NCBI RefSeq assembly: GCF_019744875.1
Contig: NZ_JAIETU010000011.1
Location: 10,723 to 74,722, forward strand
Direction: 5' to 3'
Source of the DNA: Hyphomicrobium sp.
GTDB taxonomy: Bacteria > Pseudomonadota > Alphaproteobacteria > Rhizobiales > Hyphomicrobiaceae
Length of the DNA: 64,000 nt
The position numbers were made by a program, and so were the translations under genes. The notes below the pieces were generated by a model that was given only the letters and a program-made list of their open reading frames with translations, had not been told where the DNA came from and ran no database searches. Below are positions 28,659 to 61,078 of the stretch, piece after piece (the first letter of the stretch is position 1; every line of letters starts with the position of its first letter).

Positions 28659-28682
28659 CGCTATATACGTGCCTATATAACG
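28659..28682. promoter_or_regulatory. AT-rich palindrome CGCTATATAC-GTGC-CTATATAACG (copy 1 of 4)
   Basis: Lies in the 770-nt non-coding stretch upstream of the TonB-receptor operon. Matches CGCTATAT-N8-ATATARCG. Confidence 0.5.
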
Positions 28683-29083
28683 GGCAGAGATGCCGGGGGG
28701 CATCGAGTATTGCGTGGGGGAAACTGATGTCGCGGCCTGCCGCTGCAGCTATTGCTGCGGGCGTTTTTCAAACAAATTCGACGTTCGCTGAGGCTCAGCG
28801 ATTTCGCTGCTCCGGCAGCAGATCCAAGGTATCGAGCCTGCGCCCGGGGTTTCCAGCCCCCATTCGAGCTCAGAGTGACGGACCAGGTGGTCCTCCCGCC
28901 TAAGGGTCGCGTCTCACGCTTTTCCCGCATGATTTAGCGCTCTGCTATCCGCGACCAGCACCCTCACGCCCATCAGAACAGGGCCGACCGGTCCTGCGCG
29001 GAACCGATCATGCCGACACCCAACAACATATCAAACGTGGTGAGCCACATCGGCCATCGCGCGTATCGCTAGGAGCGTTGCGT

Positions 29084-31447
29084 ATGAGAGAAGTGAAATT
29101 CGCGCTGACTGCTGCATTGTTTATGGCGCCCATGCCGGCGCTGGCGCAGGAAGCGAAGACCAATGAGAAAATCGAAAGCCTGCCGCCTGTCACCGTGACC
29201 ACCAATTCGCCGGCGAAGGCAGCAAAGTCCGCTGTTGCGAAGAAAAAGCCGCAGGCCGCGCCTGTAAGCACTCAAAATGTGCAGATCGAAGGGGCCAACG
29301 AGGCCCCGTCAACTCCCTCCGTCACGAGCAAAATTGTCGGCGGCGTGATTGTCACGAATCCGGATCTCGGGCGGGTCAGTAGCGTCACGCGCGAGGGCCT
29401 CACACTGTTCGGTGGTGGGGCGCAGACGAGCTTCTATCAAGCCGCCAACATCCTGCCTTCCGTGAACGTTGAGAGCCCTGATCCCTACGGCCTTAGCGCG
29501 ACGCGCAACATCAACATTGCGGGCAAGTCAGACTTTCATCTCTCCCGCAACATCAACGGGCTCCCCGTCGCCGGGATCGTGGGTGGTGCCGATCTCTACG
29601 ATCTCGAGAACATCTATCGGCTTGACGTCTATCGGGGAGCGATCCCGGCTGACAAAAGTCTTGGCATGTCCAACGCGTCCGGCGTGATCGACCAGATTAT
29701 TCTTGGTCCGCAAGACAAATCATCGAGCTTCTTTTCGCAGAGCTTCGGATCCTGGGATTTCAGCAAGACGTTTGCGCGTTTCGACAGCGGGCTGTTGAGC
29801 ACGGGCACGAAGTTCTTCGTCTCGGGCTCGGTTACGGACGCGGACAAGTGGACCGGAGTGGGCGATTCATCGCGCGATAACGCCGCTTTGGGCTGGAGCC
29901 AGAAGTTCGGAGACAACCTGAACGTCGACGTCAACGCCGTCTACAACAAGTTCGACGGCAATCCCTATCGTGCGCTGACCTATGCGCAGACGCGCGATCT
30001 CAAGAGCAACTACAAATTCGACTACAACACCGCTTTGACCGGCAATCCAGCGGCCGACGTCAACTATTACAAATTCAACCGCTCGAGCGCAGAGACCTAC
30101 GCGCTCCAAGCAAACATCGACTACGAGTTCTCCGAAGGCCAGCACGTCGTGTTCAAGCCCTACTATTGGAACAACGATGGCGTGCAGTATTCTGCAGCCG
30201 GCAACAACGTCCAGATTTGGCGTCAGGAAAACGATAACGTTGGCGGCGTGCTCGAATACAAGGGCCAGTTCGGAACCGGCACAGACCTCACAGTCGGATA
30301 CTGGTGGCAGTCCATGGCGCCTCCTCCGCCGCCGACTGACCAGCGTCGCTTCAGAGTCACGCCGACTGGGGACTTGGCGTTCGTGTCGTGGAACACGATC
30401 GCAAAGATCGATGATTTCGTCATCAACAGCCCGTACGCGCAGCTTACGCAGACTTTCGGATCGATCACCGTCACCGGCGGATTGCGCTACATGAGCCTCG
30501 GTGCGCCGGAGATGCAGTATTTCAACGGAGCGGGCGTGCCTGATGGCACCTTGGATGATGCCCTGGCCACTAATCCTGCTCTTCTCCCCGGCACCTCGGT
30601 GGCGCAGCACGACTACAACGAGTTCCTTCCGAACATCGCCATCACCAAGGATTTCGGCGCCGGATGGAGCGCAAACATCGCATACGGTCGCAACCTGGGG
30701 CGGCCGGACTGGGGTCCGCAGGCAAACAACTACATTTCCAACCGCGCTGCCTTCCAGGCCAAAGGCATCACGCTTCAGGATCTCGTTGACAAAGTTAGAC
30801 CTGAAATTGCCGATCAGATTTCGGCTCAAGTCAGCTTCCAGGGAAATGGCCTGACGGTCATTCCCTCCGTCTTCTATGCTGAGCGCGCCAACAAGCAGGT
30901 GAAGATTATCGATCCCGGCATCGGCCCCAACATTGCCTATTACGAAGGGACCGGGTCGAGCACGGAATACGGCGCTGAATTGCAGGTGGGCTATCAGTTC
31001 GGGTCGGAACTTTTTGTCTTCGGTTCGGGAACACTCGCCTCTGAGACCTTCGATGCCGACACGGCAACGCTGAGCGGCGGCGCGCTGCTCGGCACCAAAG
31101 GAAAGCAGATCCCCAACACGCCCCAGACGATGCTCAAAGCCGGCCTGACCTATAGCTGGGAAGGCTTCTCGTTCACGCCGGTCGTCCGGTACATCGGGGA
31201 ACGCTATGGCGACGCGTCGAACCTACAAAAGGTCTCTGCGTATACGGTGGCCGATTTTACTGTCGGCTATGACGCCACCCGCCTGTTCGATCTGGAAGAG
31301 GTGACAATGAGGGTTGGCGTCATGAACGTGTTCGATAGCAAGTATGTGTCTCAGATCGCGCCTAACGATTTCGATCTGAGCTCGAACGCGACGTACTACG
31401 TGGGTGCCCCGCGTACCTTCGTTGGCACCGTGGCGGTGAAATACTAG
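29084..31447 (+). CDS. TonB-dependent outer-membrane receptor
   Basis: Signal peptide, plug domain, beta-barrel, C-terminal …TFVGTVAVKY. AGGAG lies 8 nt upstream of ATG 29084. Confidence 0.9.
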   Translation: MREVKFALTAALFMAPMPALAQEAKTNEKIESLPPVTVTTNSPAKAAKSAVAKKKPQAAPVSTQNVQIEGANEAPSTPSVTSKIVGGVIVTNPDLGRVSSVTREGLTLFGGGAQTSFYQAANILPSVNVESPDPYGLSATRNINIAGKSDFHLSRNINGLPVAGIVGGADLYDLENIYRLDVYRGAIPADKSLGMSNASGVIDQIILGPQDKSSSFFSQSFGSWDFSKTFARFDSGLLSTGTKFFVSGSVTDADKWTGVGDSSRDNAALGWSQKFGDNLNVDVNAVYNKFDGNPYRALTYAQTRDLKSNYKFDYNTALTGNPAADVNYYKFNRSSAETYALQANIDYEFSEGQHVVFKPYYWNNDGVQYSAAGNNVQIWRQENDNVGGVLEYKGQFGTGTDLTVGYWWQSMAPPPPPTDQRRFRVTPTGDLAFVSWNTIAKIDDFVINSPYAQLTQTFGSITVTGGLRYMSLGAPEMQYFNGAGVPDGTLDDALATNPALLPGTSVAQHDYNEFLPNIAITKDFGAGWSANIAYGRNLGRPDWGPQANNYISNRAAFQAKGITLQDLVDKVRPEIADQISAQVSFQGNGLTVIPSVFYAERANKQVKIIDPGIGPNIAYYEGTGSSTEYGAELQVGYQFGSELFVFGSGTLASETFDADTATLSGGALLGTKGKQIPNTPQTMLKAGLTYSWEGFSFTPVVRYIGERYGDASNLQKVSAYTVADFTVGYDATRLFDLEEVTMRVGVMNVFDSKYVSQIAPNDFDLSSNATYYVGAPRTFVGTVAVKY

Positions 31448-31473
31448 AGGACGGCACGAATGGAGCGTCGCAG

Positions 31474-32550
31474 ATGCTCCATTCGTGTGCTTCCGGGAAC
31501 GACTGCATGCTCCTGATGCAAACGATCGCTCGCCGATCTATCCCGCTATGGCTCTCTCTCGTCGTGTTGGTTGCTGCTGGAGCGTCCCCTGTCCGCGCAG
31601 ATCGCCTCGTGACGGATATGGCCGGACGGACTGTGAAGGTGCCTGACAGGATTGCGCATGTGGCAACCATCGGGCCCGTTCCGGTTCTGAACAGCTTTGT
31701 GTTCGCCATGGGAGAAGCGGCGACGATCGCCAACAATCTACCGCCCAATCTCGGAGGACCGAGGTGGCGCTTCCAGTATGTGTTCGCGCCGCAAATCGCA
31801 AAGCAGCCGGTTATTCAAACTGGTGACGGGCCGAGCATAGAGGGTGTCGCCCAGCTTGCCCCCGATGTCGTTTTGACGATGGATCGGCCCACCATCGATC
31901 TGGTGGAGCGGGCGCGCACGCCCGCGATCTATTTGGCGTGGCGGGAGCCGGACGATGTGAAGACGGCAATGCGTCTGCTTGGGGCCTTGTATGATAAGCC
32001 GGATGTGGCGGAAACCTACTGCCGGTACTTCGACGACTCTCTCGCCAAGGTCAGCGCCCGTACCGATGCGTTGTCCGCAGCCGATCGGCCACGCGTTCTT
32101 TATGCAAACCTCAAACGCCTAACGCAGCCGCATCGCATCGCCGAGTGGTGGATCGCGAAAGCCGGAGGAAAAAGCGTAACCGATGACGGTCGCACCAGCG
32201 AAGCGTTCAACTTTTCAATCGAGCAGGTTTTGCTCTGGGACCCCGAAGTGATCATCGTTAGCGGAGCCGACGAGATCGCTGATGCCTACGCCGATGCGCG
32301 GCTCGCCGGCGTTTCGGCCATAAAGAAGCGTCGCGTGTATGCCGTGCCGATGGGCGCGCACGTTTGGGGGAATAGAACAGCCGAGCAGCCCCTGACCGTT
32401 CTCTGGGCGGCCAAGAACTTCCATCCCGAGCTATTCAAAGATGTGTCCCTCACTGAGGAAGTGCGCTCCTTCTACGCCAAGTTTTTTAAGGCCGGCCTGA
32501 GCGACAACGACATCGATGTGATCCTGGAGGGTCGCGCCGGTGCCCGATAG
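31474..32550 (+). CDS. Periplasmic substrate-binding protein, iron-chelate/B12 (cluster A, FecB/BtuF-like) type
   Basis: Signal peptide ending …GASPVRA/DR and Peripla_BP_2-like layout. The start may instead be 31507 or 31516. Confidence 0.75.
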   Translation: MLHSCASGNDCMLLMQTIARRSIPLWLSLVVLVAAGASPVRADRLVTDMAGRTVKVPDRIAHVATIGPVPVLNSFVFAMGEAATIANNLPPNLGGPRWRFQYVFAPQIAKQPVIQTGDGPSIEGVAQLAPDVVLTMDRPTIDLVERARTPAIYLAWREPDDVKTAMRLLGALYDKPDVAETYCRYFDDSLAKVSARTDALSAADRPRVLYANLKRLTQPHRIAEWWIAKAGGKSVTDDGRTSEAFNFSIEQVLLWDPEVIIVSGADEIADAYADARLAGVSAIKKRRVYAVPMGAHVWGNRTAEQPLTVLWAAKNFHPELFKDVSLTEEVRSFYAKFFKAGLSDNDIDVILEGRAGAR

Positions 32551-32620
32551 ACAGAAACACGAAGGGGCTCTGAGCTGCGACGATCAGAGGCGTCAAGCTT
32601 CGCCCGATGCCGCAGCGCCA

Positions 32621-33643
32621 ATGGGCTCGACGGTTCGCATCGGCCTTTCCGGATGCGGCGGCGGCCTGGAGTCGATCTCGTCATCGAAGCTGCTGGATCT
32701 CGTGGAGAGGATCGAAGCCTGGGGGTTCGATGCGCTGTGGCTGAACGAGGAGCACTTCCAGGGCAGCATCGTTGAAGTCGAAGGGCGCCGATGCCATTCG
32801 CCTCTCATCCTTGCGAGCGCCGTTCTTGCGCGTACGCGCAAATTGCGCGTCGGCTTTTCCGTGCTGCTGCTTCCGCTTCATCACCCGGTGCGTCTCGCGG
32901 AGGAAATCGCGACACTCGACGTGCTGTCCGACGGCCGGGTCGATTTCGGCATTTCGCGAGGCGGCAATGGTCGTTATCTCGAAGTGTATGGTGTGGCTCC
33001 CGAAAGTGTGGAGGAGCGCTTCCAAACGACACTGGAGTTTTGCCTCCAGGCTTGGCAGCAAGGCACGATGACGTTCGGAGGGAATGCCTACTCGATCGAG
33101 CCGAAGCCGGTCCAGAAGCCTCACCCTCCTGTCTTCATCGGCACCTATTCCGACGAGATGGCGGGCTGGACGGCGCGCGAGGGCCACGCGCTGATATGCC
33201 ATGGCATCACGAGCATGGACAATCAACGCCGCCTGGTGAAGGCCTTCAGTGACGCCGGAGGCGACGTGCGACGCGTCCCGTTTGGACGATTTGTCTATGT
33301 GAGCGAGACGGACGCGAGTGCGCGCAAAGAGCTTTGGCCGACGGTGCTGAAATTGACGGAGAGGCTGAGAGGCTTCGGTCTGTTCAATCGTAAGGGTGTT
33401 GTCGCCGAGCGGGATCTCGATCCGGAGGTCTTCTTCAACGAGATGGTCATTGCGGGCAGCCCCGAGACGTGCGCGCGGAAGGTTCTCGCGCTCCATGACG
33501 AACTCGGGTTGACGTACCTCAATGCCTTGAGCGCGTTCTTCGGCTTTTTGCCGCTCGAACTTCTCGAAAAGTCGCTGGCTCTATTGGGAACTGAAGTCCG
33601 GCCGCGCGTGGAGCGCGTGCTGGCTGCCGGTCTCACATCATGA
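32621..33643 (+). CDS. Luciferase-like (LLM class) flavin-dependent oxidoreductase
   Basis: GFDALWLNEEHF…LAEEIATLDVLSDGRVDFGISRG…KPHPPVFIG. Sits between the binding-protein and permease genes. An alternative GVG-overlap start lies at 32540. Confidence 0.8.
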   Translation: MGSTVRIGLSGCGGGLESISSSKLLDLVERIEAWGFDALWLNEEHFQGSIVEVEGRRCHSPLILASAVLARTRKLRVGFSVLLLPLHHPVRLAEEIATLDVLSDGRVDFGISRGGNGRYLEVYGVAPESVEERFQTTLEFCLQAWQQGTMTFGGNAYSIEPKPVQKPHPPVFIGTYSDEMAGWTAREGHALICHGITSMDNQRRLVKAFSDAGGDVRRVPFGRFVYVSETDASARKELWPTVLKLTERLRGFGLFNRKGVVAERDLDPEVFFNEMVIAGSPETCARKVLALHDELGLTYLNALSAFFGFLPLELLEKSLALLGTEVRPRVERVLAAGLTS

Positions 33644-34659
33644 GACGGCCGCGTTTATTCTCAATCAGTGCGCTGCTGATGCTGGCGTTGCTTGGCATGA
33701 CGGCAGTGTCGCTCGCTGTTGGCCGTTATCCGCTGAGCCTCGCGGACATTTGGGAGTTCCTGCAGGCGTCGGTCGGCCTGCGCGATATTGGGTCAGAACG
33801 GTACGCGCTGCTCTACAACATCATCGTCGAAATTCGATTGCCGCGAGTTCTGGCGGCCATCCTGATCGGCGCGGCGCTGGCGATATCGGGCGCCTCATTC
33901 CAAGCCGTGTTTCGCAACCCACTGGTCTCTCCCGGCATCCTCGGCGTGCTCGGGGGTGCCAGCTTCGGAGCGGCGCTTGGCCTGCTGCTGTCGGATCAAT
34001 GGCTCGTGATTCAACTGCTTGCCTTCACGATGGCGCTTTTGGCAGTTGGGTTTGGGGTTTTTATCGCCAATCTCTTCGGGCCAGCGACGATGGTGACGCT
34101 TGTTCTCGGCGGCATCATCAGTGGTGCGCTGTTCACAGCCTTGTTGTCGATTACCAAGTACACGGCGGATCCCTACAATGAACTGCCGGCAATCGTTTAT
34201 TGGCTGATGGGTAGTCTCCAGGCCGTGCAGTTGACGCACATCACCGCGGTGGCAATCCCGATCATCGCCGGCATCGTGGTGCTGACGCTGCTCGGTCACG
34301 CACTCGATGCCCTGTCGATGGGTGACGACGAAGCCCGTTCACTGGGAGTTCCCGTCACGGCTGTTCGCTATGGTGTGATTATCATGGCTACTCTTATCTC
34401 CGCACTGTCGGTGTCGATCGCGGGGATCATCGGATGGGTTGGGCTCGTGGTCCCGAATTTCGCGCGTCTGGCGTTCGGGCCAGCGAACACCCGCCTTCTG
34501 CCGCTCAGCGCGCTTATTGGATCGTTGTTTCTGCTGAGCGCCGACCTCATCACGCGTGTCATAACTCCTGCAGAGATCCCCATCGGGATCGTTACAGAGC
34601 TGCTTGGCATTCCCGCATTCCTACTTGTCCTTGGAAGGGCTAGGCGGGCTTGGATCTAG
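33640..34659 (+). CDS. FecCD-family ABC permease (iron-chelate type)
   Basis: IVEIRLPRVLAAILIGAALAISGASFQAVFRNPLVSPGILG is a FecCD signature. Overlaps the LLM gene stop. Confidence 0.9.
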   Translation: MRRPRLFSISALLMLALLGMTAVSLAVGRYPLSLADIWEFLQASVGLRDIGSERYALLYNIIVEIRLPRVLAAILIGAALAISGASFQAVFRNPLVSPGILGVLGGASFGAALGLLLSDQWLVIQLLAFTMALLAVGFGVFIANLFGPATMVTLVLGGIISGALFTALLSITKYTADPYNELPAIVYWLMGSLQAVQLTHITAVAIPIIAGIVVLTLLGHALDALSMGDDEARSLGVPVTAVRYGVIIMATLISALSVSIAGIIGWVGLVVPNFARLAFGPANTRLLPLSALIGSLFLLSADLITRVITPAEIPIGIVTELLGIPAFLLVLGRARRAWI

Positions 34660-34679
34660 ATCAGGCAAAACCCATCCAG

Positions 34680-35480
34680 ATGGAGATGTCGCGAGGGCCT
34701 CATCTCGTGGCGCGCGACATACATTTTCGGATTGGCGCGCACAACATCCTGAAGGGCATCGATCTGGCCATTGGTCCCGGTGAGATCATGTCGCTCCTGG
34801 GTGCCAACGGAGCGGGCAAGACAACACTGCTGCGCGTATTGCTGGGGCTGATTTCGCCCGCCCAGGGACAGGTTCTTATCGACGACACCGCGACTTCGTC
34901 TCTGGCGCGACGAGACGTGGCGCAACGCATGGCCTATGTGCCGCAAGTCCACATGACGCCGTTCCCCTACACCGTCCGCGAAGTCGTCGCGATGGGACGG
35001 CTGTCGCGGAAGGGCTTGTTGGGCAATCCGTCCGATCGCGATCAAGAGGTCGTCCAAAGCGTTCTCGAGCAGATCGAGATTTCGCGCCTCGCCGATCGCG
35101 TCTACAGCGAGATTTCCGGAGGTGAGCGTCAGCTCACGCTCATCGCGCGGGCGCTCGCGCAGCAAGCGTCGATCCTCATCCTGGATGAGCCGATGGCTAA
35201 CCTCGACTTCGGCTATCAGACCTTGCTCAGCACGCATCTGAGAAAACTCGCCCAATCGGGTCACACGATCCTCATGAGCGGCCACGACCCGCAGCTCGCT
35301 TTTCATTCGTCGACGCGCATCGGGCTGCTGTTTGATGGCCGTCTCGAGCTGGACGGCAAGCCACAAGACGTTTTGACCGCAGGGACGATGCAAAGGCTTT
35401 ACGGGGTCGATGTCGACATCATCGCGCTCGCTGACGGCCGAAGAGCATTTTTCCCGGTTGTCAGCCCGGTTAGTCAGTGA
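34680..35480 (+). CDS. ABC transporter ATP-binding protein (FecE/FepC-like)
   Basis: Walker A GANGAGKTT, signature SGGERQ, Walker B ILILDEP. Confidence 0.9.
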   Translation: MEMSRGPHLVARDIHFRIGAHNILKGIDLAIGPGEIMSLLGANGAGKTTLLRVLLGLISPAQGQVLIDDTATSSLARRDVAQRMAYVPQVHMTPFPYTVREVVAMGRLSRKGLLGNPSDRDQEVVQSVLEQIEISRLADRVYSEISGGERQLTLIARALAQQASILILDEPMANLDFGYQTLLSTHLRKLAQSGHTILMSGHDPQLAFHSSTRIGLLFDGRLELDGKPQDVLTAGTMQRLYGVDVDIIALADGRRAFFPVVSPVSQ

Positions 35481-35515
35481 GTGAACCGCTCCGCGTACTT
35501 CGATGAATGTGCAGG

Positions 35516-36178
35516 CTACCCGCGCTTGGGCGATTGATCCGTCGGCTTCTGCGCGACGAGAAAGATGCGGGCGTCTTTCCGCGTAGATCCATGGCGCGCG
35601 CGTTCGATGATCGTAAAGCCGGCAGCTTCGATCTCTCCTTCGAGCTCAGCCGCAGAGAAGCACGATACATACGGAGCCTTGCCCGCGAACTGAGCAATCG
35701 GAATGGCGTATCGTATGAGGGGGTTCATCTCGGAGAGGCACGGGGTCTTCGAGATGAACAGGCCGCCGGGCTTCAATCGTCGATGGAGCGATGAAAGCGT
35801 CGAGGGCCGTGCAGGGATAAGATGTAAGAGGTTGAACGCGAGAACGGCGTTGTACGCGGCATCCGGTCCCGGAACGTCCCCAGCGGCCGCAACCGCGAAG
35901 TCGACATTCGTGCATCCTGCGGTCGCCACCTTTCCGCGCGCGATCGCGATCATCTCGCTCGACACGTCCGTTGCAATCAGGCGCCCCACGGCGGGAGCGA
36001 GCTTCAGCGCGGTCGTGCCCGTCCCGCAGCCGACCTCGAGCACGGTGTCTGTGGCTCCGAGGATTTCCCGCGTGCGCTCGATCGTGCGCTCGTAGCCAAT
36101 CGTGTCCTTGATCGGCGCGGCCGCATATTTGCGCGCTGCCTTGTCCCAGAACTGCGTGTCGTCAGTGGTGCTGACCAT
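35516..36178 (-). CDS. Class I SAM-dependent methyltransferase
   Basis: VLEVGCGTGTTALKLA motif I. Starts at MVSTTDD. The upstream part of track ORF 35516..36484 is non-coding. Confidence 0.8.
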   Translation of the reverse strand: MVSTTDDTQFWDKAARKYAAAPIKDTIGYERTIERTREILGATDTVLEVGCGTGTTALKLAPAVGRLIATDVSSEMIAIARGKVATAGCTNVDFAVAAAGDVPGPDAAYNAVLAFNLLHLIPARPSTLSSLHRRLKPGGLFISKTPCLSEMNPLIRYAIPIAQFAGKAPYVSCFSAAELEGEIEAAGFTIIERARHGSTRKDARIFLVAQKPTDQSPKRG

Positions 36179-36263
36179 TGCGATCCCCCTCGGCCGCAAC
36201 GATCTAACACATGCAAAATTCATTGGTATTGCCGCTGATTGCACATGGCATATACAAATATGC

Positions 36264-37157
36264 ATGGATGAGATCGATTGGAACCTTGTGCGGGCCTTCC
36301 ATGCGACGGCCGATGCCGGCTCGCTCTCGGCTGCGGCACGCAAGCTGGGGCTGACACAGCCGACGTTGTCGCGCCAGGTTGCGGCGTTGGAAGCAAAGCT
36401 CGGCGTCACTCTGTTCGAGAGAGTGGGCAAAAAGCTCATAGCGACCGACGTCGCCCTTGGACTTCTCGCGCATGCCCAGAACATGGCGACAGCGGCCGAC
36501 GCAATGGCGCTCGCGGCCGCTGGATCCGTTCAGGACGTGGAAGGTCGCGTCACCATTTCGGCAACGGATACGATCGCGGCGTATGTCCTGCCCGATATCG
36601 TCGCGCGCCTTCGGCGCGAGGCGCCTCAAGTCACTGTTGCCATTGTGGCCTCGAATTCATTCAGCGACCTGAGACGGCGCGAAGCCGACATCGCCATCCG
36701 TCATGTGCGTCCGACTGAGCCCGAGTTGATCGGCCGGCTGGTGCGCGAAACGACGGCTCACTTCTACGCCTCCGCCCGGTGGATTGCCGAGAACGGATTG
36801 CCGGCCTCGTTTGAGAGCATTTCCGCAGCGGATCTCGTGGCCTTCGAGCCTGTCGAGCAATTTGCGGAGCATCTGGCTCGCATCGGTATCACTGTCAGGC
36901 CCGATGAATTTCGCATGGTCTCGGAGAACGCGGTCGTGCTGTGGGAGATCGTTCGCAGCGGGCTTGGCGTTTGCATGATGCTTCGCGAAATCGCGGAGCG
37001 CACGCCGGGTATAGTCCGTCTGCTCCCCGATTTGCCCGGAGTTCCTGTGCCGATCTGGCTCGTCAGCCACCGCGAGCTGCGCACGAGCCGGCGCGTGCGC
37101 CTGGTCTTTCAGATCCTCGCCGAGGAACTGAGTGGCGAGGGCTGCGTTCCGTGTTGA
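36264..37157 (+). CDS. LysR-family transcriptional regulator
   Basis: HTH motif LVRAFHATADAGSLSAAARKLGLTQPTLSRQVAALE. Divergent from the methyltransferase. GCATAT-ACAA-ATATGC sits at the start codon. Confidence 0.9.
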   Translation: MDEIDWNLVRAFHATADAGSLSAAARKLGLTQPTLSRQVAALEAKLGVTLFERVGKKLIATDVALGLLAHAQNMATAADAMALAAAGSVQDVEGRVTISATDTIAAYVLPDIVARLRREAPQVTVAIVASNSFSDLRRREADIAIRHVRPTEPELIGRLVRETTAHFYASARWIAENGLPASFESISAADLVAFEPVEQFAEHLARIGITVRPDEFRMVSENAVVLWEIVRSGLGVCMMLREIAERTPGIVRLLPDLPGVPVPIWLVSHRELRTSRRVRLVFQILAEELSGEGCVPC

Positions 37158-51719: not shown

Positions 51720-51726
51720 GAAGGTT

Positions 51727-53181: not shown

Positions 53182-54102
53182 TCACGCGGTTTCGAGCGTG
53201 ACGCTGCTGAAGGCCAATTCGAGGTTTAGCCTCGATCCGGTGGCCATGAATGCGCGCGCGAGCGGGGGGAGCGGATCGCGGTTCGTTGCGACGATGCCGA
53301 TCGTCTGCGTGTGTACCGGCTCGATGAGATCGATGAGTGCGATGTCCTCGCAACCTGCGAATATGTAAGCGAAGCTGTGGGGAATGATGCTGGACCAGCG
53401 TCCGCTGCAGACGTGGGAGCACACGGCGAGGAACGAGTTCGTCGTGACGGTCGGCTCAAGCTCGAGCCCTAGTGAGCGCGCCAGATTGTTCAAGACCCGG
53501 CGATTCTGCATGCTCTCGTTCAACAGGCACAGATTGCTGCGTACGGCCTCGCGCCAAGTGATGACGCTCTTGCCGGCGCTGCCCGGCTTGCGGCTGGTCA
53601 CGAACAGATAGCGCTCGCGGTAGAGCGCGGCTTTGCGCACGTGCTGCAACGGCTCGTTCTCGAGATAGGTCACGCCTGCATCGAGTTCGAACTTGTCGAG
53701 CGCGCGCTGGATTTCTGCGGAGGTGGCCGACTGGACGTCGATGGTGACTTGCGGGTGTTTGAGGGTGAATGGGGCCGTGAGTTCCGCGACGGCGGGCATG
53801 GCGGCCGGGATGACGCCGAGCCGCAGCGTGCCCTTGAGGCTGCCGCGGCATCCCTCGACATCCTGTTTCAGGCTCTCGTAGTCATTCAGGATCTTTCCTG
53901 CCCAGGCGACGACGCGCTCGCCCTCGGGTGTCAATCCCATGAACCGGGATGCGCGTACGACGAGGCGCATATCAAGCTCGCGTTCGAGCGCCTTGATGCC
54001 GGACGAGAGTGTGGGCTGCGTGACGTTGCACGCATTCGCGGCGCGACCGAAGTGCTCCTCGCGCGCCAGCGTAACGAGGTAGGTCATCTGCCGGATGAAC
54101 AT
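53182..54102 (-). CDS. LysR-family transcriptional regulator
   Basis: MFIRQMTYLVTLAREEHFGRAANACNVTQPTLSSGIKALE. Confidence 0.9.
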   Translation of the reverse strand: MFIRQMTYLVTLAREEHFGRAANACNVTQPTLSSGIKALERELDMRLVVRASRFMGLTPEGERVVAWAGKILNDYESLKQDVEGCRGSLKGTLRLGVIPAAMPAVAELTAPFTLKHPQVTIDVQSATSAEIQRALDKFELDAGVTYLENEPLQHVRKAALYRERYLFVTSRKPGSAGKSVITWREAVRSNLCLLNESMQNRRVLNNLARSLGLELEPTVTTNSFLAVCSHVCSGRWSSIIPHSFAYIFAGCEDIALIDLIEPVHTQTIGIVATNRDPLPPLARAFMATGSRLNLELAFSSVTLETA

Positions 54103-54159: not shown

Positions 54160-54540
54160 CTAGTGGGTGAGCATCGCGGCCGGACCGACGTCGATCTCGG
54201 ACAGCGAGTGCGCCAGTTGGAGTGCATTGTTCCGCGGCATGGAAAAGCTCACGCCGAAGCCGTCTTTGGTTCGCAGCGTCACGATCAGCGAGGCGGGGTC
54301 GGTGGCCTGCTCGATCGACCAGGCTCCCATCGGAAATGCGTAGCGGAACGACGCATCGCGCAACTGCCGCCGCAATGCCGCTTCGATCAGGCTTGGCAGC
54401 GTGATCGCCAGGTTGCCCAGATCCGGGATGCGAAACTTCAGCGAAGTTGCTGTGCCGGCCTCGTCCTCGAGGCTGAGCGTGACCGTCTCGCCATCATCGC
54501 TGATGTTATAGGTCGTCATCTCTTTGACATTGATGGTCAC
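54160..54540 (-). CDS. Hypothetical protein, 126 aa
   Basis: GTG start with GAGG 7 nt upstream. High GC3. No recognised family. Confidence 0.5.
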   Translation of the reverse strand: MTINVKEMTTYNISDDGETVTLSLEDEAGTATSLKFRIPDLGNLAITLPSLIEAALRRQLRDASFRYAFPMGAWSIEQATDPASLIVTLRTKDGFGVSFSMPRNNALQLAHSLSEIDVGPAAMLTH

Positions 54541-54553
54541 GGGCGAACCTCGA

Positions 54554-54577
54554 CGCTATATCCTGTCGGATATAGCG
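54554..54577. promoter_or_regulatory. Perfect 24-bp palindrome CGCTATATCC-TGTC-GGATATAGCG (copy 2 of 4)
   Basis: Perfect 10+4+10 inverted repeat, 14 nt upstream of the GTG at 54540. Confidence 0.6.
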
Positions 54578-54745: not shown

Positions 54746-55753
54746 TCAGGCGACGTCGAGCACGATGCGGTAACGCGCCTTGCCGTCCAGGAGATGCTGG
54801 ATGGCGTCGTTGACCTTCGAGATCGGGAAGTGCTCGGTCTGCGGCGCGATGTTGTGGCGGGCGCAGAACTCAAGCATCAGTTGCGACGTGACGGGCGCGC
54901 CGTTGGGCGAGCCCGATATGCTGTTCTGCCCCATGATGATGGGGAATGCCGCCACGGGAATCGGCTCGAGCACGGCGCCGACGACGTGGAGACGGCCCTT
55001 GGGGCGCAGCGTTGCGATCATTGCCGGCCAGTCGAGCGTCACGTTGACGGTCGAGATCAGGAGATCGAGCGTGCCGGCGATGCGCTTGAGATCGTCGGTG
55101 TTGCGCGTGTTGACGACGTTGTGGGCGCCAAGCGAGCGGGCTTCGTCGGCCTTGGAATCGCTCGTGGTGAAGGCGGTCACCTCGCAGCCCCAGGCGTGAG
55201 CAAACTTGAGCGCCATGTGGCCGAGGCCGCCGATGCCGATCACGCCGACGCGATCGGTCGGCTTGATGCCGAAGGCGCGAAACGGCGTGAACACGGTGAC
55301 GCCGCCGCAAAGTAGCGGCCCTGCTTCCCGGGCGTCGACGCCGTCGGGGATAGGAATTGCCCATGGCCACTGCGCGCGGACTTTTTCCGCAAATCCGCCG
55401 TGCCGGCCGACGATCGTGCCCGAATGCGTTGCGCACAGGTTCTGGTCGCCGTCGAGACAGGGCTGGCAGTGCATGCAGCTCGAAGAAGCCCAGCCGACGC
55501 CGACGCGCTGGCCGATCTTCAGTCCCTTTGCGTTCGAACCGAGCTTGCTGACCCGGCCGATGACCTCGTGTCCTGGAACGATCGGGTAGGTGGTCATGCC
55601 CCATTCGTTGTGCATCATCGAGACGTCGGAATGGCAGATGCCGCAGGTCTCAACGTCGATTTCGACGTCGTCTGCGCCCAGCGGGCCGGGGTCGTATTCA
55701 AATGGCTCGAGCGGCTTGTCGGCGCCTTTCGTGGCCCATGCTTTGATTGCCAT
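54746..55753 (-). CDS. Zn-dependent NAD(P) alcohol dehydrogenase (YahK/cinnamyl-ADH type)
   Basis: GICHSDV…GHEVIG…C..C..C…C structural-Zn motif, GIGGLGH Rossmann motif. Confidence 0.85.
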   Translation of the reverse strand: MAIKAWATKGADKPLEPFEYDPGPLGADDVEIDVETCGICHSDVSMMHNEWGMTTYPIVPGHEVIGRVSKLGSNAKGLKIGQRVGVGWASSSCMHCQPCLDGDQNLCATHSGTIVGRHGGFAEKVRAQWPWAIPIPDGVDAREAGPLLCGGVTVFTPFRAFGIKPTDRVGVIGIGGLGHMALKFAHAWGCEVTAFTTSDSKADEARSLGAHNVVNTRNTDDLKRIAGTLDLLISTVNVTLDWPAMIATLRPKGRLHVVGAVLEPIPVAAFPIIMGQNSISGSPNGAPVTSQLMLEFCARHNIAPQTEHFPISKVNDAIQHLLDGKARYRIVLDVA

Positions 55754-55776
55754 TGTGATTGCATCCTCCTCCAGTT

Positions 55777-55821
55777 TGAAAATCAACCGTAGCGTCCTTG
55801 GTTTTCCAAGGCACGCTACGG
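55777..55821 (-). terminator. Intrinsic terminator after the dehydrogenase-cytochrome c gene
   Basis: Minus strand reads CCGTAGCGTGCCTTGG-AAAA-CCAAGGACGCTACGG followed by TTGATTTTC. Confidence 0.6.
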
Positions 55822-55876
55822 CCAGCTCGATCTTCCAAGCACTCCGCTTCTTGCTGTCGAAGCCGGAAAAAGAGCC

Positions 55877-57643
55877 TCAGCGCGCCCGATGCCCGATGGC
55901 CCAAACATAGGCGGTGACGGCATCTAGGTCCGCCTTCGACAGCTCGACGCCTCCCATTGGCGGCATGGCGCCCGGGTGCTGCTTGGGTGTTTCGACGCCA
56001 TTGGCGATGGTGTCGTGAAGGCTTGCAACACTACCGTCGCCCCACAGCCATTTACCCGACGTGAGATCGGGACCAACGGGCGTGCCGATGCCGTCGGCGC
56101 CGTGGCAGCCCGCGCATGTCGCGCCCGCTACCTCGCCGTGGAACACCTTGCGGCCCTGCTCGACTTGATCGGCCGTGCTGCCTTCCGGCGGCGTCAGTGC
56201 TGCGACACTGCCCGCGTCAGGGTGGACGCCTTCGGGAGGCGAAGCGTCTTGTGCAGAAGACGCGGCAGCGATCTGGGGAGCGGCCTCGATCGGTGCGCCG
56301 GCGTCTCCCTGATAGGTGATGCGCCAGATACGGCCTGCCTTGTCGTCGGAGACAAAGAGCGCGCCGTCCGGCGCGACCGCTAGACCGGACGGACGATGTG
56401 CGGCGCGCCCGGGCTCTCTGAACCGCCCTGCGAAGCCATCGGCGAACACGACGTAGTCGCCGGACGGCTTTCCGCCGGCCAGCGGCTGGAAGACGACATT
56501 GTATCCCTGCTGCGGACCTGGTGCACGGTTCCACGATCCGTGGAAGGCGATGAAGGCTCCGCCCTGATAGGCCTTCGGGAACAGCGCACCACGATAAATC
56601 TTGAGATCGTTGGGCGCCCAATGCGCAGGGTAGTAGGCGACGGGCGGCGTCTTGTCCGCACATTTGCCGACTGCCTTGCCGCCGTCACCGCCGTATTCCG
56701 GCGCCAGCACGAGCTTCTTCTGCGCGGGATCGAAGTAGCACTCGGGCCATCCAAAGTTGGCGCCTTGCTTGAGGATCATCACTTCCTCCGAAGGAAGGTT
56801 GAACCCCTGCTCCTGAGTGTAGAGCTTCGACCAATTCTCGTGCAACTGGTCGCGCCCGTGCTGGGTTACGAACAGCCGCCCCTCGTCGTCGAAGTCGAAC
56901 CCTTCGGGATTGCGGATCCCGGAAGCGTAGCGCTCCTTGGCCGAAAATGTCTGGCCGAGCTTGTTGGCGTCGTAGCGCCAGACGCCCGCGCGAGTTTCGA
57001 GCTCCGTGCAGGGCTGGTTGCCGGGCGAGGCCGGCATGCGATTCTTCACTTCGCAGGTGTTGGTGGCAGAGCCCATCGAGACGAATAGGTTGCCGGCGGC
57101 GTCGATGGCGAATGGATGCATTGGGTGATCGCCAGTGATCGGCATGCCGCTCAATACGACCTCGGCCTTGGCATCGGCCGTTGGCAGCGCGCCGTTCTTG
57201 ATCGCGTAGCGCACGATGCGATCGTTAATCTCGGCGTAGAGCCAGTCCTTGTGGATCCAGATGCCGGTGCCGCCCTTGCCGCCGTTCGCGAACGTCTCGC
57301 CGAAGCGGGAGACGGCATCGGCCTTTCCTGCTCCTTTGGTGTCCTTCAACGCGACGACGAAGCCGCCATCGGGCGGCGTGTCGTTGCCGTAATAGACGCC
57401 GCTCCACGTATTGACATAGAGCGTGCCGTCGGGAGCTACCGCCATCTGGCGGGCATGTCCGACGTTGTCAGCGAAAATCGAGGCGCAGAAGCCCTTGGGC
57501 AGCGACAAGCCCGCATTCTCTATGCACGCCGATTTTGGATCCTCCGCCCTCGCAGGCGAAGCGACCGAAGGGACGAGACCAACAGCAATGACATTCATGG
57601 CCAGGAGCGCCGCGCTCTGGCGCCAGACGATCGACGACTGCAT
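55877..57643 (-). CDS. Periplasmic PQQ-type (sorbosone/glucose dehydrogenase-like) beta-propeller fused to a c-type cytochrome domain
   Basis: Signal peptide. Propeller motifs (…GDHPMHPF…GWPECYFD…FHGSWNR). C-terminal CAGCHG haem-binding site and …MPPMGG. Confidence 0.6.
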   Translation of the reverse strand: MQSSIVWRQSAALLAMNVIAVGLVPSVASPARAEDPKSACIENAGLSLPKGFCASIFADNVGHARQMAVAPDGTLYVNTWSGVYYGNDTPPDGGFVVALKDTKGAGKADAVSRFGETFANGGKGGTGIWIHKDWLYAEINDRIVRYAIKNGALPTADAKAEVVLSGMPITGDHPMHPFAIDAAGNLFVSMGSATNTCEVKNRMPASPGNQPCTELETRAGVWRYDANKLGQTFSAKERYASGIRNPEGFDFDDEGRLFVTQHGRDQLHENWSKLYTQEQGFNLPSEEVMILKQGANFGWPECYFDPAQKKLVLAPEYGGDGGKAVGKCADKTPPVAYYPAHWAPNDLKIYRGALFPKAYQGGAFIAFHGSWNRAPGPQQGYNVVFQPLAGGKPSGDYVVFADGFAGRFREPGRAAHRPSGLAVAPDGALFVSDDKAGRIWRITYQGDAGAPIEAAPQIAAASSAQDASPPEGVHPDAGSVAALTPPEGSTADQVEQGRKVFHGEVAGATCAGCHGADGIGTPVGPDLTSGKWLWGDGSVASLHDTIANGVETPKQHPGAMPPMGGVELSKADLDAVTAYVWAIGHRAR

Positions 57644-57697
57644 CTTTCTATCCTTGGAGCTGATGAACGAAACAAGCTAGCTAGTCGTGGACGTGCC

Positions 57698-58666
57698 CTA
57701 ATTACCGACGTGAACTGGCACGATCTCGAACGGCAGGGATGGCGGCCCCTTTTCCTTGGGCGCGAGCAGGTGCGATAGCTGTCCTTCGGCGACCCAAGCG
57801 GTATCGCCAATTTTGGCGAACGCCGTCGGCTCCTTGAGGCCATCCTTGATGGTCTCTATTCGCGCCGTGTCGCCTTCGATCGTCACGCGGTCGAGCGTTC
57901 CGCTGCCTTCGGCCATGAGAAACGTCGCTGCGCCGATGCGGCGGAGCCCGTCGGGAAGGGACAGCGGCCTCGAGGTTTTCAGCTTGGTGACGGCGCCGGC
58001 CTTGCCGTCCGCGATTTCGATGCGGAATAACTCACCACCGTGAAACGTGTTGACGTAGAGGTGCCCATCCTCGCCGAGCGCAATGCCGTCCAAGCCGGCG
58101 CCGTTGTTGGGCGGCTGGAACTGCTTGTCCTCGATAAAGATTTCGAGCGCCTTTGCGCCGGGGGCGAGCCGCAGGATGCGGGGAACGACCGTATCGGTGA
58201 CGTAAAGCGTGCCGTCGGCCGCGATCGTCATGTCGTTGCAGAGCGACGGACCGGCCGGGAACGCGTAGCTCGCCTTTCCTTCACCGGACGCGAGATCGAA
58301 GGCCTTGAGGTGGGAGCCTGCAATTGAGCTTGGTCCCGGAACTCCGAACCCCGACACGTCGTTCGAGCACACCCACAGCGTCGCGGTCTTCGCGTCGGCG
58401 TAGAGGCCGAACGTCGACCGACTGTCGAATGCGCCCGGCGGAATCCACGGCTCGGCCTTTGTTGCGCCAGCATTTACGCGCTGAACGCCACCAGCCGCAA
58501 AGCTGCTCACGTATAGCGACCCATCCGGCCCGGCCGTGATGCTCTCCGTGTAGGCTTGGTCTCCCGGGACAACGATTGGCGTAGCGCTTTGCGCGAAAGC
58601 GGCTGGTGGAACAAGAAGCACAGCCATCAAGGTGAGGTGAGCAGCGATCCGATCTGGCAAGCTCAT
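57698..58666 (-). CDS. Secreted beta-propeller protein (SMP-30/gluconolactonase/NHL-like)
   Basis: Signal peptide …PPAAFA/QS. Repeated …DG.LYV. strands. Family assignment is tentative. Confidence 0.45.
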   Translation of the reverse strand: MSLPDRIAAHLTLMAVLLVPPAAFAQSATPIVVPGDQAYTESITAGPDGSLYVSSFAAGGVQRVNAGATKAEPWIPPGAFDSRSTFGLYADAKTATLWVCSNDVSGFGVPGPSSIAGSHLKAFDLASGEGKASYAFPAGPSLCNDMTIAADGTLYVTDTVVPRILRLAPGAKALEIFIEDKQFQPPNNGAGLDGIALGEDGHLYVNTFHGGELFRIEIADGKAGAVTKLKTSRPLSLPDGLRRIGAATFLMAEGSGTLDRVTIEGDTARIETIKDGLKEPTAFAKIGDTAWVAEGQLSHLLAPKEKGPPSLPFEIVPVHVGN

Positions 58667-58685
58667 AAGCGTCCGTCCTTCCATT

Positions 58686-58709
58686 CGCAGTATATATTCG
58701 TATATAGCG
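58686..58709. promoter_or_regulatory. Degenerate palindrome CGCAGTATAT-ATTC-GTATATAGCG (copy 3 of 4)
   Basis: Right arm matches 9/10 and left arm 6/10 to the 54554 palindrome. Lies in the divergent region between 58666 (-) and 58975 (+). Confidence 0.35.
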
Positions 58710-58974
58710 ATATCCGATTACAGATCTTGCATGCCGACGTCGGCCACATTCATCGCGCTTGTGCTTCAACGCGGTTGGGCTTCATCGCGATCCCACAGCA
58801 CGACGCTTTGCATCGGCCATAAGATGGGAACCAAACGTCCGAATGCGATAGAACGAAGCTCTTGTGTTCTTGCCTAAAACTCCCAAATTGAAGATCGTCG
58901 CCTAGCGGAGAATCCGTCGGAAGCTTAGCAATCAGATCCACGGCCTCGATTTCGATCTTCCAGGAGAAGCACGA

Positions 58975-59883
58975 TTGTCCAGCCTCGTAGACTTGGCCGA
59001 TCTTATCCGGCGGCATGCGACGGCCGATGGGCCTAACGAAACCGCGATCCCGCGGATCGGACTGTTTCGTGCCTCGCGGGCCGATGAGCCCGTCTGCATG
59101 ATTTACGAACCATCGGTCTGCATCGTCGCTCAGGGGCGCAAGAGGTCCATGGTTGCGGACCGGGAGTTTCGTTACGATCAGTCCAACTACCTCGTCATCA
59201 AGGCGGATGTTCCAATCATCAGCCACCACGTTGATGCCACGCCCGGACGGCCGTTCTTGTGCATGCGCATGAAGCTCGATTCGGCCGCCATCGCAGCTTT
59301 GATGCTCGAGCGGGGGATGAAGCCGACTGGCAGCGATGAGCCGGGATCTGCCCTCGTGATCAGCAGTGTCACCCGTGATCTGATTGATGCATCTATTCGC
59401 ATGCTCCGGCTTCTCGAAACGCCGGGTGACATTCCAACACTCGCCCCGCTGATAGAGCGCGAGATCCTGTATCGGCTTCTGCAGGGCGACCAAACTTCGA
59501 AGCTCGGGCAAATTGCGTTCGCCGGAAGCAAGCTACGGCAAGTCACCCGTGCGATAGCTTGGATTAGGCAGAACTTCAGAGAGCCCTTTAGTGTCGAAGC
59601 CACTGCTGCACAGGCGAACATGAGCGCTTCGCAGCTTCACCTTCATTTTAAAGCCGTGACGACGCTGAGCCCTCTTCAGTATCAGAAGCAGCTGCGGCTG
59701 CAGGAGGCCCGGCGTCTCATGCTGACGCAAAACCTCGACGCAGCCGCGACGGCTTACGCGGTTGGATACGAAAGTCCCTCACAATTCAGCCGCGAATACC
59801 GCCGCCTGTTCGGTGTTCCGCCTGCCGCCGATGGCCGTCGTCTTCGCAGTTCATTGCCTCCCTTGGAGGATGCAGAAACTTAG
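58975..59883 (+). CDS. AraC-family regulator with AraC_N-type N-terminal domain
   Basis: …CIVAQGRKRSMV…. C-terminal HTH is ATAAQANMSASQLHLHFKAVTTLSPLQYQKQLRLQEAR…YAVGYESPSQFSREYRRLFG. Confidence 0.85.
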   Translation: MSSLVDLADLIRRHATADGPNETAIPRIGLFRASRADEPVCMIYEPSVCIVAQGRKRSMVADREFRYDQSNYLVIKADVPIISHHVDATPGRPFLCMRMKLDSAAIAALMLERGMKPTGSDEPGSALVISSVTRDLIDASIRMLRLLETPGDIPTLAPLIEREILYRLLQGDQTSKLGQIAFAGSKLRQVTRAIAWIRQNFREPFSVEATAAQANMSASQLHLHFKAVTTLSPLQYQKQLRLQEARRLMLTQNLDAAATAYAVGYESPSQFSREYRRLFGVPPAADGRRLRSSLPPLEDAET

Positions 59884-59959
59884 ACTGCGTTCGCGCAACG
59901 GAAAAAGCGGCGCAGGCTCAAGGCCTGCGCCGAAATCTGAGGACCGCATTCGTCCGCAT

Positions 59960-61012
59960 TCAGACGGCGCGCAGAAGGCCCGTCTTCGGGTGGCAGTTGA
60001 TGTACTCGAAATGCTGGTTCGAGGCGTCGAACACCGACACCTCGTGATACAGTGTCAGATCCGTGAACTTGTGAACGTTCCGCATGAACGTCACGAAAAT
60101 CTGCAGATGCGTCGGGTGAGACTCGCCCCAATGCTCGAGATGGGCAAGGGAGTTCCAGAGGCTGACGCCGAAACCCTTCTCCTGCGCGTTGCCGTTCTCG
60201 TCGATGTGATGGCAGTAGCGGTTGGTGTAGCAGCCGACCTCCAGGCCTTCGTCGCGAAGAAAGTTCATGCCTTGATGCAGCACGGGCTCGATGTCCTCGT
60301 ACCACGTGCGGCGCTCCTCGTCCTTGGTCCGGCTCCAGTCCTCTCCTGATCTGATCAAGGTCAGGTTCTTGTGGCCGCTGATGACGACGCGTCCGCCGGC
60401 CTTGGGCTGACCCTGTGTGACCGTGAGTTGGCCGACCGGCTCCATAGTGTCGTTCTGGGAGACGGGCAGGCGATCGCGCATGGATCCCCAGTAGCCGTGC
60501 TCGAAGATCGGCTGGCTCATGTTGCCGAAGAGGATGCTCGCGCCTTCGAAGGGGCCGTAGTCGTGCGTAAAGATCGTCTCGAACTGTTCCATTCGGGGGC
60601 TGAGCACCTCGCGGAAATAGCCGACGCCCTCCTTGAGGCGATCGTCGGAGGCCCACCAGCCGGAAACGTCTGCGCTGTCGGTCCAGGCTTTATGCGCGGT
60701 CGGGTCTTGCCAGTAGGCGACAACGATCAGGTTCAGGTAGCCATCGGCGTCGACGAACTGAACGAGGTCGTGACGTGCCGGTCCGTCGGCGAGTTTGAGG
60801 CTATCCTGGATGGTCTTGAAGGCCGCGAATGCTTTCGCGCGCATGTCGTCGCCCTTCGACTGAACGCCGAGGTACGCCATGACGAGTTGTTTGACGGCCG
60901 GATCGACGCGGGCGGAAAATGCGTCATAGGGCGGTTTCCACGAGTCGCTGACGCGACGGTGACGGGTGCGTGGGCACCGCAGGTGGCTTGGAATCGATGA
61001 GTCCAAAGACAT
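59960..61012 (-). CDS. oxd: Aldoxime dehydratase (haem enzyme, OxdA/OxdB family)
   Basis: SSIPSHLRCPRTRHRRV…PPYDAF…YLGVQ…HGYWGSMRDRLPVSQND…GGRVVISGHKNLTLIRSG…ESHPTHLQIFVTF…LYHEVSV…FEYINCHP. Colinear with P. chlororaphis OxdA as I recall it. Confidence 0.85.
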   Translation of the reverse strand: MSLDSSIPSHLRCPRTRHRRVSDSWKPPYDAFSARVDPAVKQLVMAYLGVQSKGDDMRAKAFAAFKTIQDSLKLADGPARHDLVQFVDADGYLNLIVVAYWQDPTAHKAWTDSADVSGWWASDDRLKEGVGYFREVLSPRMEQFETIFTHDYGPFEGASILFGNMSQPIFEHGYWGSMRDRLPVSQNDTMEPVGQLTVTQGQPKAGGRVVISGHKNLTLIRSGEDWSRTKDEERRTWYEDIEPVLHQGMNFLRDEGLEVGCYTNRYCHHIDENGNAQEKGFGVSLWNSLAHLEHWGESHPTHLQIFVTFMRNVHKFTDLTLYHEVSVFDASNQHFEYINCHPKTGLLRAV

Positions 61013-61054
61013 TGTGATCCTCCCGAGTTTTTTTATCGTGCAGTTGTTAGTTTG

Positions 61055-61078
61055 CGCTATATCCATACAGATATAACG
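61055..61078. promoter_or_regulatory. Palindrome CGCTATATCC-ATAC-AGATATAACG (copy 4 of 4)
   Basis: Left arm is identical to the 54554 copy and the right arm matches 8/10. It lies 43 nt upstream of the oxd ATG. Confidence 0.5.

Follow-up and report, generated by a model that had tools for sequence, protein, structure and literature searches.

A palindrome upstream of four transcription units in a Hyphomicrobium contig as a probable ModE operator (Mo-box)

The E. coli ModE consensus given by Rodionov et al. (2004) is ATCGNTATATA-N6-TATATANCGAT (PMC545781), and molybdate-loaded ModE binds DNA as a dimer, whereas the apo-protein does not (PMC11672702). In this study, we analyzed a 24-bp palindrome that was present four times in a 64-kb stretch of DNA from Hyphomicrobium sp. 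(contig NZ_JAIETU010000011.1, positions 10,723 to 74,722), referred to below as the window. The four copies are located upstream of a TonB-dependent receptor/ABC importer operon, a hypothetical gene followed by a LysR-type regulator gene, a beta-propeller operon and a haem dehydratase gene. They were compared with the described operators of ModE (Mo-boxes) in E. coli, Rhodobacter capsulatus and Methanosarcina acetivorans.

In the genome record of E. coli K-12, the modA operator reads CGTTATATTGTCGCCTACATAACG, is located 20 nt before modA and has the same 24-bp register as the window motif. Both have in common the inverted repeat CGnTATATA-N6-TATATAnCG (equivalently TATAT-N7-TAYAT), and the distance of about 20 nt to the start codon is similar to that of the window sites 2 and 3. 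The modA operator overlaps the promoter and the transcription start, and repression is molybdate-dependent. The E. coli targets of ModE (modABC, moaABCDE, dmsA and napF) differ from those of the window, whose four units include no mod, moa or molybdoenzyme operon. In addition, the regulator gene of the window organism was not seen in the sequence examined.

An alphaproteobacterial precedent is found in R. capsulatus, in which Mo-boxes have been named at mopA-modABC, morAB, anfA and mop. When molybdate is present, MopA and MopB repress mopA-modABC, morAB (a second ModABC-like transporter) and anfA, which encodes the activator of the Mo-free isoenzyme, Fe-only nitrogenase (PMC6925177). We propose the same logic for the importer of the window and for a route from LysR to an NAD-dependent formate dehydrogenase (FDH). 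The components are different, however. The alternative enzyme is a nitrogenase in R. capsulatus and a formate dehydrogenase in the window, the intermediate regulator is an enhancer-binding protein instead of a LysR-type protein, and the second transporter is ModABC-like (morABC) instead of a FecCD-type (type II) system combined with a TonB receptor.

The archaeal ModE box RTTATGT-N8-RCATAAY of M. acetivorans is, like the window motif, a palindrome with an 8-nt centre. It is bound by ModE in electrophoretic mobility shift assays and precedes metal transporters, and ModE represses the alternative nitrogenases vnf/anf in this species (PMC12327845). The half-site TTATGT differs from the CTATAT of the window, as does the domain of life.

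The palindrome in the window and across bacteria

Exact matches to CGCTATATN8ATATARCG were detected at 28659-28682, 54554-54577 and 61055-61078, and no match was obtained over 100 dinucleotide shuffles of the window. The copy at 54554-54577 is a perfect palindrome and hence was matched on both strands. When up to three mismatches were allowed, the sole added site was 58686-58709, with two mismatches that both fall in the left arm. All four copies listed by the first-pass annotation were thus recovered, three of them exactly. Scoring of the 14 fixed positions in the core CGNTATATN8ATATANCG gave three sites without mismatch and one with two mismatches, compared with 0 and 0.025 per window in block shuffles. 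Four sites were therefore observed at two or fewer mismatches where 0.025 were expected, which is in agreement with the earlier claim that the copies are beyond chance. Five matches with four mismatches were close to the background of 5.8, i.e., there was no excess of weaker Mo-boxes.

The half-site can be written as CGYTATAT(A/C) and the full site comprises 24 bp. Mo-box 1 (28659-28682, CGCTATATACGTGCCTATATAACG) is a perfect match to CGNTATATA-N6-TATATANCG and is located 395 nt before the start of the TonB-receptor gene at 29078. Mo-box 2 (54554-54577) is the perfect palindrome CGCTATATCCTGTCGGATATAGCG, 13-14 nt before the GTG (54540) of a gene encoding 126 aa. Mo-box 3 (58686-58709, CGCAGTATATATTCGTATATAGCG), which carries the two left-arm mismatches, lies 19 nt before the ATG of the beta-propeller gene (58666), and Mo-box 4 (61055-61078, CGCTATATCCATACAGATATAACG) lies 42-43 nt before the ATG (61012) of an aldoxime-dehydratase-like gene (Oxd). 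These distances confirmed those given previously. All four copies were found upstream of genes, in the promoter regions of several transcription units, as the first-pass annotation had reported. Their 40-nt flanks are 7-38% identical, which is the random level, while the cores are 62-79% identical. Because the flanks are no more alike than random sequence, the palindrome is a short self-contained element and not part of a REP/MITE.

Mo-box 1 reads CG-C-TATATA-CGTGCC-TATATA-A-CG and matches all 18 specified positions of the ModE consensus. Mo-boxes 2 and 4 match all 14 core positions, and Mo-box 3 has two mismatches. The motif had been described as unmatched to any known box, which is wrong, since it fits the ModE consensus; ModE was missing from the boxes compared at that time (Fur, Irr, RirA, Zur, FixK and LexA). 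The motif is already known, and the four sites are instances of the ModE operator. The idea that it resembles the operator of a dimeric regulator joining several units agrees with a ModE Mo-box. On the basis of the sequence, it is very probable that the palindrome serves as the operator of a ModE-type, molybdate-sensing regulator.

Association of the motif with mod and moa genes was found across bacteria. The pattern CGYTATATN8ATATARCG was scanned in one genome per species, and an arbitrary sample of at least 120 matching loci was analyzed. Among the matches listed (an arbitrary 120), 44 have a homologue of modA, modB or modE within 300 bp, where random placement would expect a few tenths of one locus. 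After clustering of the direct flanking genes, the same listed matches contained ModA at 27 loci, ModE and MoaA at eight each, MoeA and DmsA-type molybdopterin oxidoreductases at five each, and ModB at four. Five of the listed genomes with a box before modA belong to the Hyphomicrobiales. In a control with viral contigs, the 55 matches included no ModA or ModB and one weak ModE-like match. Phylogenetic footprinting, which the first-pass annotation had proposed as a check, revealed that the boxes recur at orthologous promoters with conserved arms and variable centres, as described below for each unit.

Transcription units behind the Mo-boxes

The first large gene behind Mo-box 1 encodes a TonB-dependent receptor (29078-31447, + strand; Pfam PF00593), the orthologues of which were nearly all from methylotrophs and methanotrophs. 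It is followed on the same strand by a MolA-like periplasmic binding protein (Peripla_BP_2; 31474-32550), a luciferase-like (flavin or F420) oxidoreductase inside the transporter operon (32540-33643; PF00296), a FecCD-type permease (33640-34659) and an ABC ATPase (34650-35480), the latter two forming a type II ABC importer. No NCBIfam model scored above its cut-off for the oxidoreductase. All five genes, the oxidoreductase among them, are kept together in Hyphomicrobium, Methylocystis and Methylomonas, and the receptor operon was unmatched in the plasmid collection.

Among proteins of solved structure, the permease is closest to HI1471 (MolB, 2nq2; 3e-54), with FhuB (7e-46) and the haem and B12 permeases behind it. 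The binding protein matched the uncharacterised Protein Data Bank (PDB) entry 4ovk best (3e-36), and MolA HI_1472 (3psa) at 1e-14 over its C-terminal half (residues 160-341) only. The closest described system is found in Haemophilus influenzae, in which molybdate and tungstate are taken up by the type II ABC importer MolBC-A (HI1470/HI1471/HI1472; PMC4031551). The window importer is likewise of type II with HI1471 as the nearest permease, and it would by analogy carry molybdate or tungstate. It differs from MolBC-A by the added TonB-dependent receptor, luciferase-like oxidoreductase and conserved leader, and by a binding protein that is closer to 4ovk.

A promoter TTGCCT-N17-CTATAT is predicted at 28650-28678 (+), with a -10 hexamer (28673-28678) that coincides with the right half of Mo-box 1. 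With this arrangement, a dimer on the box would span both the promoter spacer and the -10 region. The layout TTGnnn-N17-(C/A)TATAT, with the second hexamer as right box half, was present in all five Hyphomicrobium sequences (the window and loci L202, L203, L204 and L199); a generic sigma-70 scan did not call the promoter at Mo-box 1. In the four related loci the box was kept about 360-445 nt before the receptor gene, with one mismatch in L203, two in L202, three in L204 and five in L199, where it is still palindromic.

Behind the box there is a conserved 5' leader (28689-28903, +) with a hairpin GATGCC-GGGG-GGCATC (28689-28704), a Shine-Dalgarno-like GGGGGAA (28716-28722) and an open reading frame (ORF) from ATG 28727 to 28903. 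The hairpin covaries (U-A to C-G) in L204 and L199, so that the family form is GAYGCC-GGGG-GGCRTC with one compensatory change. The ORF encodes 58 aa with a hydrophobic, signal-peptide-like N-terminus, and a Cys follows the hydrophobic stretch in four orthologues. Its coding status is uncertain, since conservation is confined to the N-terminal ~15 residues. A terminator-like hairpin was found at 28743-28760. The leader folded marginally better than shuffles (z = -1.8), and the alifold consensus was weak except for the first hairpin. The leader could be a gene for a small secreted protein or lipoprotein, a leader peptide or a regulatory RNA. A Moco or cobalamin riboswitch was ruled out by an Rfam search, which gave no match in the leader at gathering thresholds and none at E<=1 for 28300-29200.

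All genes of the second unit are on the - strand. Mo-box 2 is followed by an uncharacterised 126-aa protein, here named hyp126 (54160-54540), and a co-oriented LysR-type regulator (53182-54102), which we propose as an intermediate activator. The next two genes encode a metal-free formate dehydrogenase that depends on NAD (51727-52926) and a membrane protein of the HPP family (51163-51666). The formate dehydrogenase was assigned by the NF005750 equivalog with 706.5 bits against a cut-off of 329, and it covered residues 1-385 of 386 model positions. No Pfam or NCBIfam match was obtained for hyp126. It has 63 homologues, some labelled Hyphomicrobium; homologues of hyp126 and of the TonB receptor with this label reach up to 80-85% identity, and the exact proteins were found solely on metagenome contigs. 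The AF2 model of hyp126 is of low confidence (pLDDT 67.5, pTM 0.41) and matched nothing in the PDB at E<=0.001 by Foldseek. A likeness to the di-Mop domains of ModE/ModG (E~0.01) was not counted as evidence in view of TM scores of 0.25-0.29.

The genes follow one another as hyp126-LysR-FDH-HPP also in L183 (Hyphomicrobium sp.), L185 and L187, and a Mo-box is located 10-14 nt before hyp126 in every orthologue examined (L177-L188). The arms of these boxes are conserved while their centres differ (CCGACAGG, CCGATCGG, CCGTTCAA, TCTATAAA and TTATCAGA), as is characteristic of DNA sites bound by a protein. More distant hyp126 homologues are directly beside a Mo-box in L107 and L147, and those in L189-L191 have two boxes. 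In L147, the box separates a MolA-like transporter operon from hyp126-modA, with a short ModE adjoining.

The gap of about 255 nt between the LysR and formate dehydrogenase genes is also conserved. Within 52927-53190 (-), conserved blocks across four genomes consist of GATCAAT...ATCAATTTGA near the LysR stop, then GAGGAAGCGCGAGGAG, then the 5' region before the ATG. They are candidates for the LysR binding site and for the fdh promoter or leader. Because the stretch before the formate dehydrogenase gene has its own conserved elements, which differ in sequence from the Mo-box, we infer a cascade in which ModE would control LysR and LysR would activate fdh.

Three genes form the operon behind Mo-box 3 (54746-58666, -). 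They encode a secreted beta-propeller protein (57698-58666), a fusion of a GSDH-type (PQQ-type) dehydrogenase with cytochrome c (55877-57643) and an NADPH aldehyde reductase of the Ahr type (54746-55786), the last assigned by NF047908 with a score of 568 bits (cut-off, 470). In L203, the orthologous operon has a box with one mismatch 60 nt before its start and is the divergent neighbour of the TonB-receptor operon. Each of the two operons has its own box there, and units 1 and 3 are therefore linked by neighbourhood as well as by motif.

The gene behind Mo-box 4 (59960-61012, -) is monocistronic and encodes a haem-containing, aldoxime-dehydratase-like protein (PF13816, 1.7e-95), with a terminator-like hairpin at 59932-59908 behind it. 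It reached 491.6 bits with the OxdA equivalog NF050090, which is below the cut-off of 600 for aliphatic aldoxime dehydratase. The protein is best regarded as a member of the haem-dehydratase family with an uncertain substrate. In Hyphomicrobium sp. (L183/L184), a box that has one mismatch and differs in sequence precedes the orthologous gene by 49 nt. In L183 (13512-16885; GCA_051860585.1), a block of histidine kinase, response regulator and Oxd is directly behind fdh-HPP. In the window (54746-63347), the operon of Ahr, GSDH-cytochrome c and beta-propeller genes and an AraC gene lie between those two blocks. Gene order was rearranged between these close relatives, and each unit kept its own Mo-box.

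Proposed control and rival explanations

When molybdenum or tungsten is plentiful, a dimer of ModE with bound oxyanion would occupy each box, and since the boxes overlap or directly follow promoters, transcription would be blocked, at site 1 by covering the spacer and the -10 hexamer. When both metals are scarce, the boxes would be vacated and the four units expressed. Unit 1 would then provide a TonB receptor, a MolABC-like importer and a luciferase-like oxidoreductase for scavenging. Unit 2 would provide hyp126 and LysR, the latter probably activating the adjacent metal-free NAD-FDH and HPP protein. Unit 3 would supply the periplasmic beta-propeller, the PQQ-type dehydrogenase-cytochrome c and the NADPH aldehyde reductase, and unit 4 the aldoxime-dehydratase-like haem enzyme. 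At least one molybdoenzyme, the assimilatory nitrate reductase of the nas cluster (23532-26192), is encoded in the window itself.

Taken together, the four sites are likely to represent a ModE regulon. Repression in molybdenum- or tungsten-replete cells with derepression on starvation is the probable direction of control, although this is held somewhat less firmly. It is preferred because the boxes are situated over or just behind promoters and because the genes would be useful without molybdenum. The specific physiological roles of the units are proposed more tentatively. The theme suggested by the first-pass annotation, haem/redox enzymes together with a metal-chelate importer, is better read as a molybdenum-starvation response, given a permease nearest to MolB and a metal-free formate dehydrogenase.

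Several observations weigh against a functional ModE regulon. A sigma-70 promoter could be placed convincingly at site 1 alone, and a generic scan for sigma-70 promoters and terminators gave no usable calls at the sites. At sites 2-4, where the box is 13-42 nt from the start codon, no promoter was called, and repression as opposed to activation was deduced from position alone. Searches by tblastn with ModE and ModA of E. coli and with eight ModE-like proteins detected no modE or modABC in the window or in about 250 kb of related loci. When a 105-aa alphaproteobacterial ModE was used as seed for a homologue search, all proteins obtained were of the Stellaceae type and none was labelled Hyphomicrobium. 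A cognate ModE in this organism is therefore assumed. No box was found at the more distant receptor operons of Methylocystis (L200) and Methylomonas (L201), nor, in a metagenome scan, at seven distant loci with beta-propeller homologues of 33-57% identity (L192-L198). Because these distant orthologues are without a box, ModE control of the units appears to be lineage-specific. That Oxd and the beta-propeller operon are connected with molybdenum is a conjecture, as is the view that units 3 and 4 stand in for molybdoenzymes.

Binding of the palindrome by a neighbour-encoded regulator instead of ModE was considered, namely by LysR (53182), AraC (58975) or the LuxR-type response regulator (61267). 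At each of sites 2-4 a regulator gene is no more than 300 bp away, hyp126 and LysR are invariably accompanied by the box, and the DNA-binding domain of ModE is itself of the LysR HTH_1 type. However, three families would need one shared operator, none of them is adjacent to site 1, and dozens of genomes in which these neighbours are missing use the same box for modA, modE, moaA and moeA. In L183 the block of AraC and beta-propeller genes is absent but the hyp126 and Oxd boxes remain. Moreover, the elements upstream of the formate dehydrogenase gene, the likelier LysR target, are of the different ATCAATTTGA type. This explanation is improbable, and the AraC, LysR, response regulator and TetR proteins that had been nominated as binders are unlikely candidates, since the box serves mod genes in genomes that lack them.

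Slightly less probable still is that the boxes are vestiges of a lost ModE and no longer regulatory. Vestigial ModE sites after loss of ModE were described in Geobacter metallireducens (PMC2700814), and the searches of the window and the related loci revealed no modE. However, three of the four sites are perfect. In addition, the arms were kept while centres and flanks diverged in genomes in which hyp126 is 58-80% identical, indicating continuing selection.

The most remote explanation is a short dispersed repeat (REP/MITE-like) or back-to-back CTATAT -10 hexamers without a dedicated protein, for CTATAT does resemble the alphaproteobacterial -10 element and the right half of box 1 can serve as one, but the flanks are at random identity, there are no more than four copies and each is located shortly before a gene, the terminal CG...CG and the 24-bp register are conserved at orthologous sites where the centre varies, and the pattern is strongly enriched beside mod genes across phyla.

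Wider implications and neighbouring genes

The regulon members may be new, i.e., the operon of TonB receptor, MolABC-like importer and oxidoreductase, the LysR-linked metal-free formate dehydrogenase and the hyp126 family. These units were not found described as ModE targets in a literature search of incomplete coverage, with regulon databases such as RegPrecise outside it. It is conceivable, though doubtful as a whole, that in Hyphomicrobium-like methylotrophs ModE controls a molybdenum-sparing programme broader than in model bacteria. Such a programme would comprise a TonB-dependent outer-membrane route for molybdenum or tungsten, as free oxyanion or chelate, that feeds a MolABC-type importer, with the conserved luciferase-like oxidoreductase processing the imported cargo. 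It would also include a ModE-to-LysR cascade that swaps molybdenum- or tungsten-dependent formate oxidation for the metal-free NAD-FDH, and the hyp126 family as a dedicated molybdenum-starvation protein.

The four sites provide a compact and testable list of genes that the methylotroph probably induces once its molybdenum or tungsten is exhausted. Formate oxidation has a central place in methylotrophy, and a ModE-gated switch to a metal-free formate dehydrogenase would, if true, explain how such organisms cope with limitation of these metals. The hyp126 family is a good target for functional work, having no domain assignment and a Mo-box directly upstream at every locus examined.

Passage of molybdate or molybdenum chelates across the outer membrane is poorly understood, and a concrete candidate for this route is offered by a ModE-controlled TonB receptor that is coupled to a MolABC-like importer and recurs in several phyla. 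A parallel operon of TonB receptor and type II ABC importer is ModE-linked in Stenotrophomonas maltophilia (L172, 1062-7252), arranged as modE, Mo-box and TonB receptor-DUF2478-PBP_2-FecCD-ATPase-methyltransferase. Mo-boxes also precede MolA-like binding proteins or FecCD permeases at four loci, L147 among them. A TonB-dependent receptor is the direct flank of Mo-box matches in several Bacteroidota (four loci, L150 with two boxes) and in one Opitutaceae genome. These flanking receptors hint that uptake across the outer membrane under the control of ModE may be widespread.

An NAD-dependent aldehyde dehydrogenase (PF00171) is encoded directly behind a Mo-box in five alphaproteobacteria (L106, L111, L123, L126 and L151). 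These enzymes may be Mo-free substitutes for molybdenum aldehyde oxidoreductases, and their position suggests that ModE may control Mo-free enzymes of aldehyde and formate metabolism more generally.

Short ModE proteins (~105-140 aa) with an N-terminal HTH only and without Mop domains adjoin Mo-boxes in many genomes (e.g., L074, L075, L092, L147 and L163). A total of 415 relatives at E<=1e-20 were annotated as 'molybdate transport system regulatory protein'. An apparent recurrent family of flanking ORFs at six loci (L074, L075, L091, L115, L141 and L163) was rejected as an artefact, being the antisense frame of short ModE-like genes. Genes for DUF2478 (PF10649) recur beside Mo-boxes at L172, L187, L189-L191 and L203; in L187 and L189-L191 the DUF2478 gene is divergent from hyp126 across the boxes. 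A methyltransferase gene of the window (35516-36484, -) is located just beyond the ATPase of unit 1 and may be compared with that in the Stenotrophomonas operon.

Two more TonB-dependent receptors are encoded in the window (40483-42714 and 45252-47504, -), together with AraC-type regulators and a PepSY_TM protein in a siderophore-type layout. Neither of them has a Mo-box, so that a single one of the three receptors encoded in the window is specifically associated with such a site. The nitrate cluster (17310-26192) consists of an ANTAR response regulator (17310-17918), an MFS transporter (19433-20731), a NirB-type nitrite reductase (20747-23197) and the nitrate reductase mentioned above, a molybdopterin enzyme with a BFD domain and without a Mo-box in front. 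A porin gene (27004-28311) follows the cluster just before Mo-box 1. At 2197-4280, an 88-aa ORF is followed by a RiPP-modifying enzyme of the MbnB/TglH/ChrH family (DUF692; 2522-3460) and a DUF2063 protein (3471-4280), a layout that resembles metal-binding RiPP clusters of the bufferin or methanobactin type.

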